Part shown: one piece after another, positions 3,413-54,393 of the stretch
How positions within the stretch are numbered: position 1 is the first letter of the stretch
Layout: every line of letters starts with the position of its first letter
Source: a virus
Virus record (IMG/VR): IMGVR_UViG_3300045157_000010
Length of the DNA stretch: 64,000 bases
Direction: 5' to 3' (one strand)
Program-made: the position numbers and the translations under genes
The notes under the pieces: generated by a model
Database searches by the model: none
Told to the model about the DNA's origin: nothing
What the model saw: the letters and a program-made list of their open reading frames with translations, nothing else

Positions 3413-3477
3413 GGTGTGTGCCCTCCCCTCTGGTGTTGTAGGTGCCCCCCCCTGTTCGATGAGAGGGGGGGGTGTTG

Positions 3478-3519
3478 TGCGTGCCGGGGGCTTGAACCCC
3501 TGGTGCCTGCCTGTCACGC
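3478..3519 (-). ncRNA. Minihelix-like T-loop module
   Basis: GCGTG/CACGC stem enclosing CCAGGGG-TTCAAGC-CCCCGG. Confidence 0.3.
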
Positions 3520-3606
3520 GCCGTGATGGCTGGCGTTGTCGGGTCTCGTCGTCCGGCGAGGATCACCGACAGCCGCGCTTCCTACCATCCGCAAACGGCA
3601 GGTTCG

Positions 3607-3677
3607 TGCGCCATCCGGGACTCGAACCCGGGTCTCCAGCTACTTGCACTGGTGCGAACCAACTTCGCCAATGACGC
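3607..3677 (-). tRNA. tRNA-like gene with non-canonical anticodon loop (GCAAGUA; nominal AAG), no encoded CCA
   Basis: GCGTCAT/ATGGCGC acceptor, GCGA/TCGC D stem, CCAGT/GCTGG anticodon stem, CCGGG-TTCGAGT-CCCGG T arm; lacks U33 and purine 37. Confidence 0.7.
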
Positions 3678-3822
3678 TGCCCCGCGTCCGGGGCGTTCCC
3701 TAGTTCCGCGTACGTCACCAGGGCTTCGGCGTATCCGTAAGGATTACCGGTAACAATGGGGCACCTGCCTGTAGCAACCAGTACCCCTCGGTTCAGTGAG
3801 CATGACCACGCTGACTGAACCC

Positions 3823-3894
3823 TGCGCGATGGAGGGGAATCGAACCCCGCACTGCCCGGAGTGACCGGCCAATCTGCGACCTTTGCAGCACCGC
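3823..3894 (-). ncRNA. Degenerate or non-canonical tRNA-like cloverleaf
   Basis: GCGGTG/CATCGC, CTGC-AAAGGTC-GCAG, CCGG-TCACT-CCGG, GGGG-TTCGATT-CCCC. Confidence 0.5.
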
Positions 3895-3915
3895 TAACCT
3901 ACGGGTAACGACTCC

Positions 3916-3977
3916 AAAAACGCTGACCAGTCCGGGGACGGTCAGGAGCAAAGCCCCCTCGGCTAGCAGGGAGGGGG
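3916..3977 (-). terminator. Two hairpins 3' of tRNA-Leu, the second followed by a U tract
   Basis: CCCCCTC/GAGGGGG (3954-3977); CTGACC/GGTCAG followed by CGTTTTT (3916-3945). Confidence 0.4.
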
Positions 3978-4053
3978 TGGTACTTCTAGCAGGATTCGAA
4001 CCTGCACTGAACGGGTTTTGAATCCGTTGCCTCTGCCATTGGGCTATAGAAGT
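3978..4053 (-). tRNA. tRNA-Leu(CAA), short variable loop, encoded CCA
   Basis: ACTTCTA/TAGAAGT acceptor, loop TT-CAA-AA, GCAGG-TTCGAAT-CCTGC T arm, A73-CCA; 76 nt. Confidence 0.9.
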
Positions 4054-4218
4054 AGGTGCCTTGCGTTTACAGTCCGTGATCCGGCGGCAACAATCGTTTG
4101 TCCGGTGTCGGCTTGCGTAAGCGTTTGGCATGAACCCCGGCAGGAGGACCGGGGTAGGAGAACCACAGAAGGAGAAGAGGTAAGGGTTTCAAGTCTTCCC
4201 TGAAAACCTTACCCAATT

Positions 4219-23557: not shown

Positions 23558-23785
23558 TCAGGCAGCGACCAGAACACGATCCTCCTCCTCCATCGTCATA
23601 GGCCGCATACCAAAACGCTCCATCTCCGCATGCACACCATCCAGCCGGTGAGCAAGCGCCCGCGCCTCGTTCGACCACGTACAACCCAGGAACAGTTCGC
23701 CCCGGGCCTCCAACTTCTCCAGCTCCGCCATCAGACGAAGCTCCATCGCCCGAAGGCGCATCTCGCACATCACCGAGGAAGTCAC
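23558..23785 (-). CDS. Hypothetical protein
   Basis: Coupled to the antirepressor stop. Confidence 0.55.
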
Positions 23786-24543
23786 GCCGCAACCCCCATC
23801 TTCCGTGCGATCATGTCCACGCCGGACGCCTTCACCTTCACGTTGTGCTGCAATTTCTCATCTCCGTAACTCGTCTTGTAGACGTAGGGGGTCACCTTGA
23901 AGTGCTGCGCGTAGCGCTGCCGTGGGGTGTTCTTGTTCTCCGGTGCCCGGTTCAGCACCTCTAGCTCACGCAGTGTGCGTAGCATCGTGTTCCTGCCGAC
24001 CCCGAGGATCTGTGCGACGCGCTGGAACGGCATCGCGCCGTCGGAGTCGAGGAACTGGTCGTACTTGTCGGCCTTCGGCTTGACGATCTCCAGTTCCCGT
24101 TCGGCTTGTTCCTTCGCCTCGTAGGTGTCTGCGAGTGCTCGGAGTGCTTCGCCGTAGTTCTGGGGGATCGTGAGCGTGTTCTGCTGCTGCTGGATGATCT
24201 CGGCTTCGCGGGTTTTGACTGCGAAGTAGGTCAGTGCGGCGGCGACTTCGGGCTTTCGTGGGTCGCCGGTCATGGCGACGAGGTACGCGGCGTAGCGGGT
24301 GAGGCGGTAGTTCTGCCGGGGCCGGCCACCAGACTTTTCAACCTTGGGGTCGAAAAGCCTGTTCAGGTCCATGTTCTGTGCTTCTGCGGCCGCCTTCGCT
24401 CGATCCACAGACTGATCGAACTTGACCCAGTTCGTGTAGCCCAGCAGTGGCATGAGGTCTCGTGCTGACCAGAACTCTCCACCCTGGTCGTCAACCTGCT
24501 TCACGTGATCGAACGGAGAACCGTTCTTCATGATGTTGCTCAC
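23782..24543 (-). CDS. Phage antirepressor (Bro-N/DinD-like N domain plus KilA-C/ANT C domain)
   Basis: [14 protein letters not shown]; [23 protein letters not shown]. Confidence 0.85.
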
Positions 24544-24704
24544 GCCGCAACCTCCACGCCCTCGCGCTGCATCAAGCCACGCACCAGACGCTCACTCTCG
24601 GCTACGATGCACGCCGACTCTGAATCCCCTTCCGCTACTGCCTTCGCCAGCCGGCTCTGTGCGGCATTCAGCAGGTAGTACAGTGCTTCAGCTTTCAGGT
24701 CCAT
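24540..24704 (-). CDS. Small protein upstream of the antirepressor (54 aa)
   Basis: GGAGGAG-7nt-ATG; coupled to ant. Confidence 0.6.
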
Positions 24705-24821
24705 AACGGATCTCCTCCATATCAGTGCGTCTCCATGCGCACAGCGGGAAGGAACAACAGATGTTGCCCCTCTCTGGTAAGGAGTGAGACAGTGAAGAAG
24801 CGGCGCAAGTAGCGCCCTCCC

Positions 24822-24860
24822 CAACGGCCCCAGCCTGATACTTCCAGGCTGGGGCCGTTG
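24822..24860. other. Perfect 16-bp hairpin in the early leader
   Basis: CAACGGCCCCAGCCTG-7nt-CAGGCTGGGGCCGTTG; outer 9-bp helix 24784-24792/24863-24871; no U tract. Confidence 0.8.
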
Positions 24861-24870
24861 CTCTGTCTCA

Positions 24871-24932
24871 CAGTGTCTTGTGGTGGACTCGAACCACCAG
24901 CCCTCCTCAGGACCGCACCATGCCAAGACTGC
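24871..24932 (-). ncRNA. Minimal tRNA-like cloverleaf with canonical T arm
   Basis: GTCTTG/CAAGAC; GCA-TGG-TGC; GGTCC-TGAGGA-GGGCT; GGTGG-TTCGAGT-CCACC. Confidence 0.6.
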
Positions 24933-25157
24933 CCAATACCGGGGTCTCACATGCCAGGTGTGAGGTACATCCCGTGGGCAAGCGCGTCATCTCTACTCGG
25001 CTCGTGGCATGGCGTTCACTCTCGCCGCTTACACCCGTAGCCTTTCGGTCAATGACCTCTGCGCTTCTCTTCGCGTTCTCTATTTGGTTCTCAAACTTCA
25101 TCCGAACCCCGGTTCTTCCTCCCCGTGTGGGGCGGCGTCTCCGTGCCGGTGAGGTGA

Positions 25158-25185
25158 ACACTACCAGACATTCTGGTTCCGTCAA
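25158..25185 (-). promoter_or_regulatory. Early lytic promoter
   Basis: TTGACG-16nt-TAGTGT with TG extension; operator in the spacer. Confidence 0.65.
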
Positions 25186-25273
25186 CCATGCACCCAGGTT
25201 CTTTCAACCATGCCACCCCCGTATGGTACCCCCGTCATGGCCACTATCAGGTGCAATGACCAAACACTCTGGT
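25163..25273. promoter_or_regulatory. Three related 15-bp operators
   Basis: ACCAGACATTCTGGT (25163, palindromic), ACCATGCACCCAGGT (25185), ACCAAACACTCTGGT (25259). Confidence 0.65.
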
Positions 25274-25283
25274 GGATTCGGCC

Positions 25284-25299
25284 TGGTATCTGATACCAT
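25284..25299 (+). promoter_or_regulatory. Repressor promoter (extended -10 TGATACCAT, leaderless) within palindrome TGGTATC-T-GATACCA
   Basis: -10 lies 7 nt before ATG 25307; no SD. Confidence 0.6.
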
Positions 25300-25306
25300 C
25301 CTTTAC

Positions 25307-25717
25307 ATGACAGATCACAGTGAATGGCTCACAGAGTCCACCGGAACTACCGTCCACGCCGTAGCCATAAAGACAGGCGTTGACCCCTCCAACTTCGCCA
25401 AGAAGGTGAAGCGTGGACTGTCCGCAGAGGAAGTCATCAACATCAGCTACGAGTACGGCCTCGACCCCGTTCAGGCTCTCGTAGACACCGGCTACCTCCA
25501 TGGAAACAGCCAGACGCGCACCGACCCGAAGGAAGTAGCCAACCGCATCCGACAAGACCTAGCAGCCCTGGAACGCATCGCCACACAAGAAATCGAACAG
25601 GACGCCACCGTCTACGAGTTCCCGGGGAGGTCCGACCCCTACACTGACGACATGCCCGAAGGGGCCGCAGCCTACGGAGGTGAACTGTTCGACACAGATG
25701 ACGACGACGATTACTGA
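25307..25717 (+). CDS. Immunity repressor (HTH)
   Basis: VHAVAIKTGVDPSNFAKK HTH; GLDPVQALVDTGYL; divergent from the early operon; upstream of ImmA. Confidence 0.75.
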   Translation: MTDHSEWLTESTGTTVHAVAIKTGVDPSNFAKKVKRGLSAEEVINISYEYGLDPVQALVDTGYLHGNSQTRTDPKEVANRIRQDLAALERIATQEIEQDATVYEFPGRSDPYTDDMPEGAAAYGGELFDTDDDDDY

Positions 25718-26072
25718 CCTGCACATCCTTTCCGAAACCCTCGGCGTGACCCTCACCCACCACAACGGGGGCACGCCAGGGTGGTACCACCACCAAACAC
25801 GTACAATCAGCACTCGCCGGAAACTCGGCATCTGCGACTACAAAAGCATCCTCGCCCACGAACTCGCCCACGCCTACTACCGCGACGAACACTGCGGCAG
25901 ATGGAACGGCAAGCAAGAGCGCAGGGCGGACCGGCTAGCAGCACGGATACTGATCTGCCCCGACGAGCTGCACAACGCGCTCCTATGGCACCGGGACGAC
26001 CTCCACGGGCTAGCGCTCGACCTAGAGGTAACACCTCACCTCATTGACGTTTTCATGTCACTCAGAAACTAG
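25698..26072 (+). CDS. immA: ImmA/IrrE-family metallopeptidase
   Basis: LAHELAHA HExxH; QERRADRLAARILI. Confidence 0.9.
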   Translation: MTTTITDLHILSETLGVTLTHHNGGTPGWYHHQTRTISTRRKLGICDYKSILAHELAHAYYRDEHCGRWNGKQERRADRLAARILICPDELHNALLWHRDDLHGLALDLEVTPHLIDVFMSLRN

Positions 26073-27247: not shown

Positions 27248-28354
27248 ATGCCCACACCACAGAAATACCAAGCCGCAGCCGGCACCCGCTGGCGCATCCA
27301 ATACCGCGACCCCACCGGCACCCGCCGCACCAAAACCGGCTTCAAAACCAAGAAACAAGCCGAGCACTGGGCAGCACAGAACATCGTTGACCAGAACGAC
27401 GGATCATGGATCGACCCCACCTCCGGGAAGATCACCGTCGGACAACTCGGCGCTGAGTGGCTGGAGAATCAAACCCACCTGAAGCCGTCCACGATGCGCG
27501 TCACCGAATCGACATGGCGCGTACATGTCGAACCGGCATGGGGACACCGCCCCGTAGGGTCCATACGCCCCTCTGAGGTCCAAACATGGGTCAGCCGCCT
27601 CGACGGTGGGGCAACGACCGTACGCAACGCACACGGCATCCTGGCGAAGATTCTGGACGTTGCCGTGATGGACAAGCGCATACCCGCCAACCCCGCCCGT
27701 GGCGTGAAGCTCCCCGTCAAGAACAAGGGGGTGAAGGTGTACCTCACCGCCGAACAGTTGCACCGGCTCGTCGACGAGTGCGGGGACCAAGGGGATCTGA
27801 TCTACCTCCTCGGAACATCCGGGATGCGATTCGGGGAAGCGGTCGCGCTCCGGGTGAAGGATGTGGACTTCATGCGGCGACGGATCAGCATCACGCGCAA
27901 CGCCGTGACCGTGAAGCAGGACGTGATTATCGGCACGCCCAAAACAGGGGAGGAACGCACCGTTGCGGTGGCTGAGGATGTTCTCACAGCCCTGTCCGTC
28001 AGGTGCCAGGGGAAGGCGCGCAACGACCTCCTATGGACGCGGCGGGACGGAGGGCTACTCCGCACCCTGGGGCACAACAGCTTCTTCCATAACGCGCTGC
28101 GGCGTATCCAGGCGGACGATCCCGAGTTCCCGTGGCTGACCCCGCACGGCCTACGGCATGTCGCAGCCGGACTGATGGTGTCGTCCGGGGCGAACGTGAA
28201 GGTTGTGCAACGGCAACTCGGACACGCGTCCGCGACCATGACCTTGGACCGGTACGCGGACCTGTTTGACGACGATCTCGACGGGGTGGCGGCGCGCATG
28301 GATGAGATCTTGACGCGTGGGGGTGCGTCAAATGTGCGTCAAATGAAAAAATAG
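27248..28354 (+). CDS. int: Tyrosine integrase
   Basis: GMRFGE, PKT, HGLRH, LGH, TLDRY; N-terminal arm-binding domain. Confidence 0.97.
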   Translation: MPTPQKYQAAAGTRWRIQYRDPTGTRRTKTGFKTKKQAEHWAAQNIVDQNDGSWIDPTSGKITVGQLGAEWLENQTHLKPSTMRVTESTWRVHVEPAWGHRPVGSIRPSEVQTWVSRLDGGATTVRNAHGILAKILDVAVMDKRIPANPARGVKLPVKNKGVKVYLTAEQLHRLVDECGDQGDLIYLLGTSGMRFGEAVALRVKDVDFMRRRISITRNAVTVKQDVIIGTPKTGEERTVAVAEDVLTALSVRCQGKARNDLLWTRRDGGLLRTLGHNSFFHNALRRIQADDPEFPWLTPHGLRHVAAGLMVSSGANVKVVQRQLGHASATMTLDRYADLFDDDLDGVAARMDEILTRGGASNVRQMKK

Positions 28355-28388: not shown

Positions 28389-28436
28389 TGGTGCGCACTG
28401 ACGGGTTCGAACCGCCGACCTGCTGGGTGTAAACCA
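28389..28436 (-). other. attP common core: 3' half of tRNA-Val(TAC)
   Basis: TGG-TTTACAC-CCAGCAGGTC-GGCGG-TTCGAAC-CCGTC-AGTGCGC-ACCA; no 5' half. Confidence 0.9.
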
Positions 28437-49435: not shown

Positions 49436-50891
49436 TGTTGACCTCCTCCCCCGGCGTTGCCGCCGAATCATCAACAGGAACATCAAGCCCCGTAGCCTTC
49501 AGCGCGTCATCCTGCGAAACACCAGCATCAACAAGTGACTTCGTAGCCGCCGCCAACTGGGCCAACTCCGCAGCGTCCGCCCCGTCCGCCGCATCAGTCT
49601 TCACATCTCCGGCAGCGACAGCCTCAGACAGAGGACGCTTACCAGGCAGCGAGTAGACACGCCGAACGTGCTCCTCCAGATCCTTATCCGCGAAGATCGC
49701 CTTAGCGTTCACCAGCGTGGCGAGATCCTGAGCAGACAGTTCCTTCTTCGACGCAATCGGATCAACAACAACCCGAGGGCACAACCCCGTATAACCGGGG
49801 AACGCCACATCGACAAGATCCTCAACGATGTGCTGAGTCGCGGTGTCCGCGATCCAGTCTGCAATCGTCTGCAACGACTGGATGAACAGATCCGACTGCG
49901 TTTCCGCCAGTGCGTACGAGCCTCCCCCGCCGTCGAGGTTCAGGAAGTGAGCCAGCACCGAACGGGCAATCATCGCATCGTGATACGAAATCGACTCACG
50001 AGGACTGACCAGCTGACCATTCACGCCCAACAGCTGAAGCTCAGCCTTCGCCGGGATCGCGCCGCCCGCCTCAGCGCCCGCACGAATCCCCCGTGCAAGC
50101 TCCTGACCATGACGCAGATCCTCAGCAGGGTTCTCCGCAAGCTCGGAACCCTTGTAAATCGGCACACCCATGCCGTTACGCTCCAGAACCTGCATCTCCA
50201 GGCGCAAAGCCTGATCCCGCAACTTCCAGTGCTTGAACGCGGGACGCAACACCGAAGTGCCCTCCCACGACGTATCACGCGGCGCATGACAATAAGCCAC
50301 AAGACGATCAACGGGGATAGTCGCACCATCCGCCCGCGCCGTGCCGGTGCTAGCCCCAACTTGCTCCACCGACGACAGACCACCATCCTCTGCCACATTG
50401 ATACGGGTCAACGTCCCCGGATACCGGGGGGCCAACTTAGCGAGGTGCATACGGCCCCCGCGCTCCTCATAAACCTGCTCAAAGAACATCACACCGTACT
50501 GCAACGACAGAAGAGCCTGCTGCAAGTGCTCAGTCCACGACACACGCCCACGCCGACGCGCCACCGGCTCCTTGGGAGAATCACCCAACACCGGAAGACG
50601 CAGATCCTCCGACACCAACGCCACAACCTCATCCGGTGCGCCGTTCGGGTCCAACCGCCAATCGGCACGCTCAATCGGCAACCACAAAGCATTCAACACC
50701 GAAGTAACCTGAGCATCCTCACGCCCCATCTTCGCAAACACCGCAGCCGAATGCGGAAACCGAAGCTCCCAATTATCCTCAGCCGTAATAGCGCCCTTAG
50801 ACGAAATAGCGTGGCCGATCTCCGGCGTACGCCTAGAATCGGAGGTTGGCGACAAATTGCGAACCTTCCGAGGCTGAAATGGATTCCACAT
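49428..50891 (-). CDS. Portal protein
   Basis: 487 aa after terL; G.SVLRPAFKHW..K, ERNGMGVP. Confidence 0.88.
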   Translation of the reverse strand: MWNPFQPRKVRNLSPTSDSRRTPEIGHAISSKGAITAEDNWELRFPHSAAVFAKMGREDAQVTSVLNALWLPIERADWRLDPNGAPDEVVALVSEDLRLPVLGDSPKEPVARRRGRVSWTEHLQQALLSLQYGVMFFEQVYEERGGRMHLAKLAPRYPGTLTRINVAEDGGLSSVEQVGASTGTARADGATIPVDRLVAYCHAPRDTSWEGTSVLRPAFKHWKLRDQALRLEMQVLERNGMGVPIYKGSELAENPAEDLRHGQELARGIRAGAEAGGAIPAKAELQLLGVNGQLVSPRESISYHDAMIARSVLAHFLNLDGGGGSYALAETQSDLFIQSLQTIADWIADTATQHIVEDLVDVAFPGYTGLCPRVVVDPIASKKELSAQDLATLVNAKAIFADKDLEEHVRRVYSLPGKRPLSEAVAAGDVKTDAADGADAAELAQLAAATKSLVDAGVSQDDALKATGLDVPVDDSAATPGEEVNSE

Positions 50892-52374
50892 GCCCCACGA
50901 ACCTCCTTGTCTTTTTCACGTCCGGCGCATCCACCGGAATCTCAAACTCAACTAGCCCCCACAACGCGAACGACGCAGCGACGAGCACACTGACCACCGG
51001 GGCGGTATGCTGAAACGCACGATCACCCCGAGACCCCTGACGGAACTCCGCGACCTCCAGAGCATCCCCCCACCGGGGATCCCCATCATGTGTCAACGCG
51101 CCCTCGCGGAACATCGTCAACAGCAGCTCGCACGCCGCCGTGACCTTCCCCCAGGCGATCTGCTCCGGCTCCACACCAGACTTCGTGAGCGGGTCCAACA
51201 ACGTAGCGCCGACACCCTTCGTCTCAATGACCACCGCCACCGGATCGTTCTTCGCCACCGTCCTAGCAACCGAAGCGACAACCTCATCCCGGTCAAACAC
51301 CGACACAGGGGCAAGGGACAAATGCACGCCCCTATCGGTACGCAGCGCGGCAACCATGCCAACCCCCGCACCCTCCGGCGCGACATCCAACCCCACGCAA
51401 CAATCACCGACAACACTCGGGCGAGACTCCGCGACCGCCTGCCACTCGACAGGATCAACCACAAACTCCCTGCCCTCATCCTCATCACCACGCGGATACC
51501 ACTCACCCGTGCCCAACGACTCGACCGTGAACACCGCCCGCAGCTCCGGCGACTTCCCCGCAGACTTCGCCGCAGCCCGGATCTCGCTCAACTGCACACC
51601 AGGCCCACGATCCACCAAGGAAGGGTTAGCGATGCGCCACGACTGCTCCACGAGAGGATCGGCCCCCTCGGGCATCGACCACTCCTTGAACAGAATCCCG
51701 TCCTCGCCGTCAATGCCCGCCCACCGCTTAGCCGAGAAGATCGCGCCGTGCATATGCTCCCACCGATTCACCGGCGACGAGATAAACACCTTCTGCGCAT
51801 TCTCCACAGCAGCCGTCGTCGAGTTCATCGCAGCGAACACCTCGACCGGAAGGTCGTAGCACTCGTCAAAGATCAGCAGATCGATCGTCCGACCACGGCC
51901 CGTCTTCTTCGTCCTCGTACGGAACACCGCCGACGCACCATTCGGGAAGTGGATAGCCTCCTTGCCGTTCGACTTCATCAGCTCCGGCTCACCCTCGAAC
52001 TCATCCGCCCACCAGCCCATCAGGTCCGGGTGCTCCGAGATCACATCCCACAACCGGCCCATAGCGTCCAGCGCCGTTTCCATCAAGTGCGCCGTGTGGT
52101 AGATCAGCCGCTCACCGAACAAGAAGATGCCGGCCAACTCACGGGCAACCAGAACCTCGCCCTTACCGTTCTGGCGGGCAACAACCACCGCAACCTCACG
52201 AGCCGACCACAACCCCGACTCATCCGTCCGGCACATATCCCGCAGCAAATCCTCCTGCCACGGGTACAGGGTCAGCCCGCAGAACCTGGCGAACTCCACC
52301 GCCTCATCGCCCCGCGCAACATCACCATCGGGAACATGAGACAAGCGAGGCTCACGGATGCCAAGCAGCGCCAC
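50833..52374 (-). CDS. terL: Terminase large subunit (second copy)
   Basis: Identical to 659-2200. Confidence 0.93.
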   Translation of the reverse strand: MALLGIREPRLSHVPDGDVARGDEAVEFARFCGLTLYPWQEDLLRDMCRTDESGLWSAREVAVVVARQNGKGEVLVARELAGIFLFGERLIYHTAHLMETALDAMGRLWDVISEHPDLMGWWADEFEGEPELMKSNGKEAIHFPNGASAVFRTRTKKTGRGRTIDLLIFDECYDLPVEVFAAMNSTTAAVENAQKVFISSPVNRWEHMHGAIFSAKRWAGIDGEDGILFKEWSMPEGADPLVEQSWRIANPSLVDRGPGVQLSEIRAAAKSAGKSPELRAVFTVESLGTGEWYPRGDEDEGREFVVDPVEWQAVAESRPSVVGDCCVGLDVAPEGAGVGMVAALRTDRGVHLSLAPVSVFDRDEVVASVARTVAKNDPVAVVIETKGVGATLLDPLTKSGVEPEQIAWGKVTAACELLLTMFREGALTHDGDPRWGDALEVAEFRQGSRGDRAFQHTAPVVSVLVAASFALWGLVEFEIPVDAPDVKKTRRFVGHVESISASEGSQFVANLRF

Positions 52375-53586: not shown

Positions 53587-53780
53587 GGTGTGTGCCCTCC
53601 CCTCTGGTGTTGTAGGTGCCCCCCCCTGTTCGATGAGAGGGGGGGGTGTTGTGCGTGCCGGGGGCTTGAACCCCTGGTGCCTGCCTGTCACGCGCCGTGA
53701 TGGCTGGCGTTGTCGGGTCTCGTCGTCCGGCGAGGATCACCGACAGCCGCGCTTCCTACCATCCGCAAACGGCAGGTTCG

Positions 53781-53851
53781 TGCGCCATCCGGGACTCGAA
53801 CCCGGGTCTCCAGCTACTTGCACTGGTGCGAACCAACTTCGCCAATGACGC
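53781..53851 (-). tRNA. tRNA-like gene with aberrant anticodon loop (second copy)
   Basis: Identical to 3607-3677. Confidence 0.65.
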
Positions 53852-54151
53852 TGCCCCGCGTCCGGGGCGTTCCCTAGTTCCGCGTACGTCACCAGGGCTT
53901 CGGCGTATCCGTAAGGATTACCGGTAACAATGGGGCACCTGCCTGTAGCAACCAGTACCCCTCGGTTCAGTGAGCATGACCACGCTGACTGAACCCTGCG
54001 CGATGGAGGGGAATCGAACCCCGCACTGCCCGGAGTGACCGGCCAATCTGCGACCTTTGCAGCACCGCTAACCTACGGGTAACGACTCCAAAAACGCTGA
54101 CCAGTCCGGGGACGGTCAGGAGCAAAGCCCCCTCGGCTAGCAGGGAGGGGG

Positions 54152-54227
54152 TGGTACTTCTAGCAGGATTCGAACCTGCACTGAACGGGTTTTGAATCCG
54201 TTGCCTCTGCCATTGGGCTATAGAAGT
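54152..54227 (-). tRNA. tRNA-Leu(CAA) (second copy)
   Basis: Identical to 3978-4053. Confidence 0.88.
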
Positions 54228-54393
54228 AGGTGCCTTGCGTTTACAGTCCGTGATCCGGCGGCAACAATCGTTTGTCCGGTGTCGGCTTGCGTAAGCGTTT
54301 GGCATGAACCCCGGCAGGAGGACCGGGGTAGGAGAACCACAGAAGGAGAAGAGGTAAGGGTTTCAAGTCTTCCCTGAAAACCTTACCCAATTA

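Follow-up and report, generated by a model that had tools for sequence, protein, structure and literature searches.

The early leader of a temperate Corynebacterium phage carries a conserved 55-nt RNA element with the shape of the top half of a tRNA. By analogy of setting and architecture, this element is a new form of the early-leader RNA known from the phages L5 and D29. As read from sequence, the element most plausibly undergoes processing by RNase P or other tRNA enzymes.

The phage and its early control region

The DNA analyzed here, referred to as the window, is a stretch of 64,000 nt and corresponds to a 50,174-bp phage genome read past its own end (bases 1–300 recur at 50175–50474). 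The public runs that contain this genome are ant metagenomes. Close relatives were not found among the 50,697 deposited phage genomes of INPHARED, in which a blastn search with the leader was also without a match. The phage is temperate and possesses a tyrosine integrase gene (27248–28354); next to this gene lies an attP core whose 48-bp identity with tRNA-Val(TAC) is common to several Corynebacterium species. Judged from such sequence evidence, its host belongs to the variabile group of Corynebacterium. The same phage also encodes tRNAs and T-loop modules that are grouped in a cluster of their own. The attachment site and the features of the early control region are the following:

28389–28436: attP core, beside the tyrosine integrase gene; matches the 3′ end of Corynebacterium tRNA-Val(TAC) at all 48 bp
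25680–26072: gene for an ImmA-like protein (Peptidase_M78), overlapping the HTH repressor gene
25307–25717, plus strand: HTH repressor gene, divergent from the early operon
25259–25273: second copy of the operator ACCAGAcatTCTGGT
25158–25185, minus strand: putative early lytic promoter, with −35 box TTGACG (25185–25180), a 16-nt spacer and −10 box TAGTGT (25163–25158)
25163–25177: palindromic operator ACCAGAcatTCTGGT, within the promoter spacer
24705–25151, minus strand: untranslated early leader of about 447 nt, with a conserved unit that runs from the predicted start to 24875
25102–25149, minus strand: 5′ irregular hairpin domain, with the same RNAalifold fold in short and long leaders
24540–24704, minus strand: conserved 54-aa early ORF without a family match; RBS GGAGGAG at 24718–24712
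23782–24543, minus strand: antirepressor gene (Bro-N plus KilAC/ANT); its GTG start and the stop codon of the small ORF overlap

Early transcription would start at about 25152–25150. The promoter was called because its boxes are kept with equal spacing in relatives, and not on the basis of a scan: simple consensus scans for promoters and terminators between 24400 and 25400 made no calls and missed the TTGACG/TAGTGT promoter too. This is the sole promoter found for the leader, and it is overlapped by the repressor operator. Further downstream, the 54-aa ORF is translationally coupled to the antirepressor in the window phage.

The leader itself is devoid of a coding signal in a GC3 frame plot and of any conserved ORF, and its folding as a whole gives z = −3.57. 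Candidate frames for a Cro-like protein (92/64 aa, 41 aa, and 49 aa) were without a coding signature in every case. The original prediction had stated that no Cro is encoded here, and this is borne out in the sense that the middle of the leader is not conserved and that the ATG of the longest ORF candidate is missing from relatives.

Relatives were reached by three routes: protein-cluster look-ups with the repressor and the small ORF, one pattern match in a JGI metagenome, and one prophage. The repressor and small-ORF homologues in metagenome assemblies led to about 30 loci, while locus searches with the repressor or Ant as query yielded no relatives. The prophage copy of the element lies in Corynebacterium sp. 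CNJ-954. Two forms of the leader are distinguished in this set: (i) a short form of 273–299 nt, and (ii) a long form of 390–420 nt. Both have in common a hairpin domain at the 5′ terminus and, at the 3′ end, the tRNA-like element. In the 5′ domain, one closing pair changes from UA to GC and two other pairs change to G-U only. Conservation of the leader always opens at the motif GGCACGG, 10 nt past the −10 box, a spacing seen in four promoter/operator contexts that derive from three repressor variants with 27–35% amino acid identity. It halts at the acceptor 3′ end of the element, beyond which the sequences are unrelated. These limits, together with the shared end domains, argue for a non-coding RNA module as the unit, extending from the transcription start to the mini-tRNA. 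A long-range pairing, in several segments, between the 5′ half of the element and a conserved stretch upstream of it, proposed by RNAalifold for the long leaders, was rejected, as it was no better than in shuffled sequences.

Structure and conservation of the tRNA-like element

The element and the structures that follow it in the window, all on the minus strand, are:

24929–24875, minus strand: mini-tRNA-like element of 55 nt (GUCUUGG...CAAGAC)
24929–24924 with 24880–24875, minus strand: acceptor stem, 6 bp
24923–24915, minus strand: mini D-like stem-loop, with a stem of 2–3 bp and GG in the loop
24913–24900, minus strand: hairpin GUCCU-GAGG-AGGGC, 5–6 bp across variants, with the 4-nt loop GAGG
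24898–24882, minus strand: T arm GGUGG-UUCGAGU-CCACC, with a 5-bp stem and a 7-nt loop
24784–24871, minus strand: three-way structure after the element (an outer helix and two hairpins), with no U-tract after it
24871–24863 with 24792–24784, minus strand: outer helix, 9 bp
24860–24822, minus strand: long hairpin, 17 bp, z = −6.7
24816–24802, minus strand: hairpin GGCGC/GCGCC

The cloverleaf with its perfect T arm and the 9-bp outer helix had been described in the original prediction and are present as such; the long hairpin was also located correctly, but it has 17 bp and not 16. In all variants, a canonical T arm with a loop of the UUCRANY type is stacked on the 6-bp acceptor stem. The element resembles the top half of class II tRNAs (Leu/Ser), with which it shares the T loop UUCGAGU, the 5-bp T stem placed on the acceptor, and a hairpin on the 5′ side of the T arm that recalls the long variable arm. 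Unlike these tRNAs, it has no anticodon arm, and its D-like stem counts merely 2–3 bp. It is thus not a full cloverleaf with a 7-nt anticodon loop, its hairpin loop being of 4 nt. ARAGORN at default settings reported no tRNA at this position, and only a lowered threshold produced an odd call; the Rfam tRNA models gave no match on the element region at E ≤ 10. More generally, a search of Rfam with the window region, three relatives, and L5 revealed no family for the element and only sub-threshold noise. Its T arm is shared by no tRNA in four Corynebacterium genomes, which suggests that no particular tRNA is mimicked.

The cloverleaf is the minimum-energy fold of the isolated element in 7/7 variants tested. 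The folding energy is ordinary, with z = −0.1 to −2.7 when the element is folded by itself and z = +0.38 for a 91-nt stretch that contains it, so that it is through its conservation, and not through energy alone, that the element stands above chance. A covariance model built from the element, R1, was used to search the relatives and detected it in 29 of 30 related loci. The single miss was a contig too short to reach the element, and the 25 complete copies, with 14 distinct complete variants, scored 69–93 bits. The tRNA-like RNA that had been predicted in the leader of a repressor-controlled early operon is therefore a real and conserved element. In a search of 151 family-level and 151 genus-level Corynebacterium genomes, R1 found only the copy in the CNJ-954 prophage, which scores 88.8 bits. 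The other weak matches in this set were coding sequence or tRNA-Leu, and the score against host tRNA-Leu(CAA) was weak (about 22 bits).

Between the window and other lineages, nucleotide identity is 86–89% in the element, compared with 74–76% in the repressor gene, 62–69% in the small ORF, and 44–46% in the middle of the leader, where the shuffled baseline is 43%. From these figures, the element is the most strongly selected stretch of the region. Across its 16 pairs, 99.6% of pair cells are standard. The T stem contains one compensatory pair, with GC replaced by AU on both sides, while the three changes in the hairpin stem are one-sided and give only G-U or C-G pairs. In the D-like stem, GCA/UGC switches to GCC/GGC, and GG is always found in its loop. 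The remaining variation is confined to the linker, the junction, the bulge, and the discriminator position. The G-U pairs, among them an invariant U-G pair, work only on the minus-strand transcript, which is that of the early operon. The acceptor stem is invariant, and the lone covarying pair of the T stem has two states that largely track lineage; covariation support for the proposed structure is modest.

What follows the element is far more variable. In 7/7 variants folded, a hairpin of unrelated sequence occurs 3–15 nt past the element, with a U-tract after it in two variants; in the window, no terminator-like site was called after the element by the scan. The first gene begins about 170 nt past the element in the window and 55–65 nt past it in relatives. 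The genes themselves also differ: some loci have the small ORF and the antirepressor, others the small ORF with other genes, and two relatives carry unrelated genes.

Antisense, DNA-level and translational readings

In the original prediction, the element was taken for a C4/CI-type antisense RNA, which would be processed by RNase P, pair with flanking sites of the operon, and block the small ORF and the antirepressor, thereby conferring a secondary immunity on the lysogen. C4 and CI RNAs are excised by RNase P, and C4-type loops are complementary to targets in their operons (a′/b′ at the icd RBS; seqA/seqC in P4). The order of promoter, tRNA-like RNA, small ORF, and coupled antirepressor does resemble that of the P1 c4-icd-ant operon (PMC8201110), and the antirepressor arrangement recurs in several relatives. 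For the window phage, the analogy holds at the level of this general layout, that is, a small structured RNA in the leader of an operon in which a small ORF is coupled to an antirepressor, but neither membership of the family nor the antisense-immunity mechanism is supported. The Rfam model of the C4 family (RF01695; 87 positions, with a cut-off of 45 bits) had no match in window positions 24000–26000 at E ≤ 10 or in the loci of three relatives at E ≤ 5; in the genome with the prophage copy, its best score was 22 bits, at a site 16 kb away from the element. The short complementary segments that had been quoted are literally present in the sequence, but pairing of this kind is at chance level: the longest contiguous match to the element has 10 nt, and one of at least this length occurred in 214/500 dinucleotide shuffles for the upstream flank and in 322/500 for the downstream flank, and the best RNAduplex energies between element and flanks in 9–10 variants had z values of −1.7 to +2.5. 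The T arm is kept in relatives, but the proposed target sites were not found at the corresponding positions, and the proposed antisense loop is itself variable, with GAGGAGGG replaced by GAGUAGGG or GAGGGGGG. In addition, the element travels with the leader and not with the antirepressor, as several relatives carry other genes downstream. Finally, immunity requires expression in the lysogen, which is not indicated here, since the only promoter is overlapped by the operator and a second, operator-independent promoter is not evident. Taken together, this makes an antisense immunity RNA very improbable. The idea that the conserved stretch acts as DNA and not as RNA, for instance as a secondary attachment site or a mobile-element target derived from the end of a tRNA gene, has a still smaller, almost negligible probability. 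The 3′ ends of tRNA genes are frequent integration targets, and T-arm and acceptor sequences are present in the element. A role of the element as attP was ruled out, as the real attP adjoins int and has the 48-bp match to tRNA-Val. When a 24-mer of the element and two degenerate patterns were searched in 185,579 species genomes, no host tRNA was retrieved, and the only hit was the one prophage copy. Against a DNA site also count the conservation of the 5′ acceptor strand, the G-U pairs, which make the structure strand-specific, and the fact that conservation opens at the transcription start.

Another reading concerns a short open reading frame that is embedded in the element and runs beyond it:

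24868–24897, minus strand: nine-codon uORF, from a GUG in the T stem to a UGA, preceded by the SD-like motif GAGGAGG

According to this reading, GAGGAGG and the GUG/AUG codon truly initiate a short leader peptide (MVRVHH...), and fold and translation would alternate and thus tune the next gene. In the cloverleaf, half of the SD would be hidden together with the start codon, and the SD-like motif is found 4–5 nt ahead of the start codon in all variants. The G to A change in the T stem turns GUG into AUG, and the C to U change of its partner is a synonymous change of a His codon. Some relatives have a uORF that stops shortly after the small ORF has begun or that shares the frame of the latter, and in two of them gene callers began an 81-aa product within the element. 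However, the length of the uORF is unstable, with 9 codons in the window and 15 to more than 30 in relatives, and its stop in the window lies 160 nt ahead of the next gene. Two variants with GAGUAGGG have a weakened SD, and the 30 nt on the 5′ side of the SD are as conserved as the part occupied by the uORF. A 1-nt indel moves the frame after codon 6, with the nucleotides nonetheless conserved, and the third codon positions of the uORF frame in the T loop are invariant, although the adjoining real gene is only 62–69% identical. The indel and the invariant third positions indicate that selection acts on the RNA and not on a peptide. Translational control by a leader peptide is therefore considered improbable, and the uORF is probably incidental or secondary.

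Comparison with the Pleft leader of L5 and D29, and proposed role

Among known systems, it is the non-coding Pleft leader RNA of the Cluster A mycobacteriophages L5, D29, and StarStuff (Dedrick et al. 2017, PMC5712189) that, by analogy, is the closest to the leader described here. As in these phages, a repressor-controlled early promoter is followed by several hundred nt of leader devoid of ORFs (its transcription being predicted in the present case). As in L5, D29, EagleEye, RedRock, and Loser, a tRNA-like module and then a hairpin are found just 5′ of the first early gene. In L5, we located this module at 51,133–51,228 on the early strand, about 50 nt ahead of gp89, with an 8-bp hairpin directly past it. 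Its score against the Rfam tRNA-Sec model, 22 bits, is below the cut-off. An alignment of Cluster A phages (L5, D29, EagleEye, RedRock, and Loser) contains 11 pairs with compensatory changes; four of these lie in the T stem, which has five pairs in all and encloses an invariant GUUCGAUUC. Several differences separate the two cases. The L5 module is of about 95 nt and has a D-like arm and further arms, whereas the element of the Corynebacterium phage has 55 nt and only a rudimentary D stem. The host genera are different, as is the phage type, the Corynebacterium phage having a central int and a repressor and ImmA cassette. R1 retrieved nothing from the right end of L5 at E ≤ 10, and as the two modules match neither in sequence nor by covariance model, the analogy is architectural only.

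The position of the L5 module coincides with sites already singled out by experiment. The Pleft RNA of L5, of about 500 nt, is abundant, stable, and processed; it is the most abundant early transcript, and expression of the locus is toxic to M. smegmatis (PMC5712189). About 90% of the Pleft transcripts terminate at 51,140–51,190, without an evident terminator, and the segment 51,195–51,407 resisted deletion, which was interpreted as a sign that it is necessary for lytic growth (PMC5712189). This segment adjoins the 3′ end of the Pleft RNA and extends 34 nt into the tRNA-like module. Similarly, a sharp RNA peak lies immediately 5′ of gene 89 in D29 (2025 D29 preprint). The tRNA-like module thus falls on the reported 3′ end of the L5 Pleft RNA and on the D29 peak, and in neither of the two studies (PMC5712189; 2025 D29 preprint) is the RNA described as tRNA-like.

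The architecture of the element agrees with a function at the level of RNA maturation. With the acceptor stem stacked on the T arm, the D-like loop with its GG could form a tRNA elbow, and the short hairpin would replace the anticodon or variable arm. The acceptor/T-arm part of tRNA is recognized by RNase Z as well as by the CCA-adding enzyme and RNase P, and the latter two accept a minihelix made of these two arms as a sufficient substrate. Because these enzymes recognize the top half of tRNA, we propose that the element mimics this half, acts in the processing or stability of the leader, and may be cut by host tRNA enzymes, a proposal that we consider evenly balanced between right and wrong. 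The leader, non-coding and built of modules, would be expressed from the repressor-controlled promoter, and the element is its last module on the 3′ side. After induction or infection, host tRNA-maturation enzymes would recognize the tRNA top half; RNase P would cut on the 5′ side of G24929, and RNase Z, RNase E, or exonucleases would act just past 24875. Such cuts would part the leader from the early mRNA. The outcome could be either to fix the 3′ end and the stability of an abundant leader RNA, or to release a stable RNA of about 55–60 nt, and processing would set the amount of transcript that continues into the small ORF and the antirepressor. Six metatranscriptome runs contain the stretch, only as long contigs of the whole region that are possibly DNA carry-over and that give no ends, strand, or levels.

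The same mechanism as that proposed for the phage element operates in the mascRNA of MALAT1 and in plant mitochondrial t-elements, which are tRNA mimics embedded in longer transcripts and cut by tRNA enzymes. Such cutting matures the end of the RNA that lies upstream and leaves a small by-product resembling tRNA. These systems differ from the phage element in being eukaryotic or organellar and have no homology to it.

A further hypothesis is that the excised mini-tRNA, or the whole leader, acts in trans as a tRNA mimic that binds or titrates a host protein recognizing the elbow and acceptor and so helps early lytic development; a processing or modification enzyme, a tRNA-targeting toxin, and a defense nuclease are the candidate targets. 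Several observations agree with it. The elbow features (the T loop and the GG of the D loop) and the acceptor are conserved beyond the likely needs of a bare cleavage signal. The analogous RNA of L5 and D29 is abundant, stable, and toxic, and a segment adjoining its 3′ end resisted deletion (PMC5712189); the tRNAs and T-loop modules clustered elsewhere in the Corynebacterium phage point in a similar direction. However, no specific tRNA is mimicked, and an anticodon arm is lacking. We regard this role, together with its candidate targets, as rather unlikely, but it may follow from, and coexist with, the proposed processing. A broader form of the idea is that unrelated types of temperate actinophages, namely the present Corynebacterium group and Cluster A, each end their first early transcript with a tRNA top-half mimic, that cutting by host tRNA-processing enzymes yields an abundant and stable small RNA, and that this RNA is an essential early effector, for example a decoy or inhibitor of an elbow-recognizing host factor. 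We put this forward tentatively, as a possibility that has a modest chance of being correct. If true, it would explain why the Pleft RNA of L5 and D29 is toxic and hard to delete.

No family in Rfam covers the element, and automatic gene calling at times places a protein start within its sequence. In Cluster A, the function of the Pleft RNA and the formation of its 3′ end have so far been without an explanation. Experimental material is at hand: Corynebacterium sp. CNJ-954 is a cultured lysogen that carries the element, and the genetics of L5 and D29 are well developed. The unrelated Corynebacterium phages and Cluster A phages have one design in common, in which an early promoter is followed by a non-coding leader, a tRNA-like module, a hairpin, and the first gene, and in each of them selection is strongest on the tRNA-like module. 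This shared design points to a testable mechanism, namely recognition by tRNA-processing enzymes.

Hairpins flanking the tRNA-like element and the start of the small ORF

The early leader opens with a conserved irregular hairpin of ~50 nt, which sits directly at the inferred 5' end of the transcript and occupies the same position in every relative:

Window 25102-25149, minus strand: conserved irregular 5' hairpin

One of its pair changes replaces UA with GC, and two others give G-U pairs only. This domain could act as a 5' stabiliser or as an RNA-polymerase-directed element. Leaders of the long type seem to contain a second, similar copy of the module ~85 nt downstream.

At the other end of the leader, a U-rich tract lies 3' of the hairpin that follows the tRNA-like element in the two relatives without the small ORF (loci L020 and L021):

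L020 11573-11632: post-element hairpin, then U-rich tract, UUGAUUGUUUG
L021 1559-1618: post-element hairpin, then U-rich tract, UUGGUUUUUUGUU

This arrangement looks like an intrinsic terminator, at which the leader would be finished as a discrete RNA of ~470 nt. In two other relatives, the small ORF has been lengthened to 81 aa by automatic gene calls (L010 93-338 and L016 2166-2411), both of which begin at a GTG within the T stem of the tRNA-like element; alignment of the homologues places the start of the conserved small protein at a later ATG, which has its own RBS.

tRNA-like modules in Cluster A and elsewhere

The Pleft leader of Cluster A mycobacteriophages (L5, D29, EagleEye, RedRock, and Loser; loci L032 and L033-L036) has a terminal tRNA-like module followed by a hairpin:

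L5 (Z18946) 51,133-51,228 (L032 434-529): tRNA-like module of ~95 nt, end of the Pleft leader

The module displays strong covariation, with 11 compensatory pairs across the five phages, and its position coincides exactly with the 3' end of the abundant Pleft RNA of L5, an end left unexplained when this RNA was published (PMC5712189). Neither that paper nor the 2025 D29 preprint describes the Pleft RNA as "tRNA-like."

The phage itself contains a separate non-coding cluster:

Window 3430-4218, repeated at 53604-54392, minus strand: two ARAGORN tRNA-Leu calls and T-loop modules

The two tRNA-Leu calls are only 72-76 nt long, and further T-loop modules are present (GGTTCGATTCC and GGTTCGAGTCC). 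Since R1, the covariance model built from the leader element, matches this cluster with only 11.6 bits, it is not a copy of that element.

In the genome of Corynebacterium sp. CNJ-954, the Rfam C4 model scores highest at L060 (G002:C3:49302-49376), with 22 bits (E 0.14), below the cut-off; this locus lies on the same contig as the prophage leader element, 16 kb away. This match is probably noise.

Host assignment and possible routes to repressor inactivation

Further features concern integration and immunity:

Window 28389-28436: attP core, adjoining int (27248-28354), 48 bp identical to the tRNA-Val(TAC) 3' end
Window 25307-26072: repressor gene and overlapping ImmA-like metalloprotease gene

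The 48-bp identity is to the tRNA-Val(TAC) 3' end in at least eight Corynebacterium genomes, and this uncultured phage is therefore assigned a Corynebacterium host. The core also occurs on two contigs of one MAG, with the tRNA absent at one copy, as expected of the attL and attR of a resident prophage.

The repressor/ImmA-like gene pair is an ImmR/ImmA-type induction module, and the early operon additionally encodes a classical Ant antirepressor. The presence of both the ImmA-like metalloprotease and Ant in one phage thus provides two possible routes of repressor inactivation.
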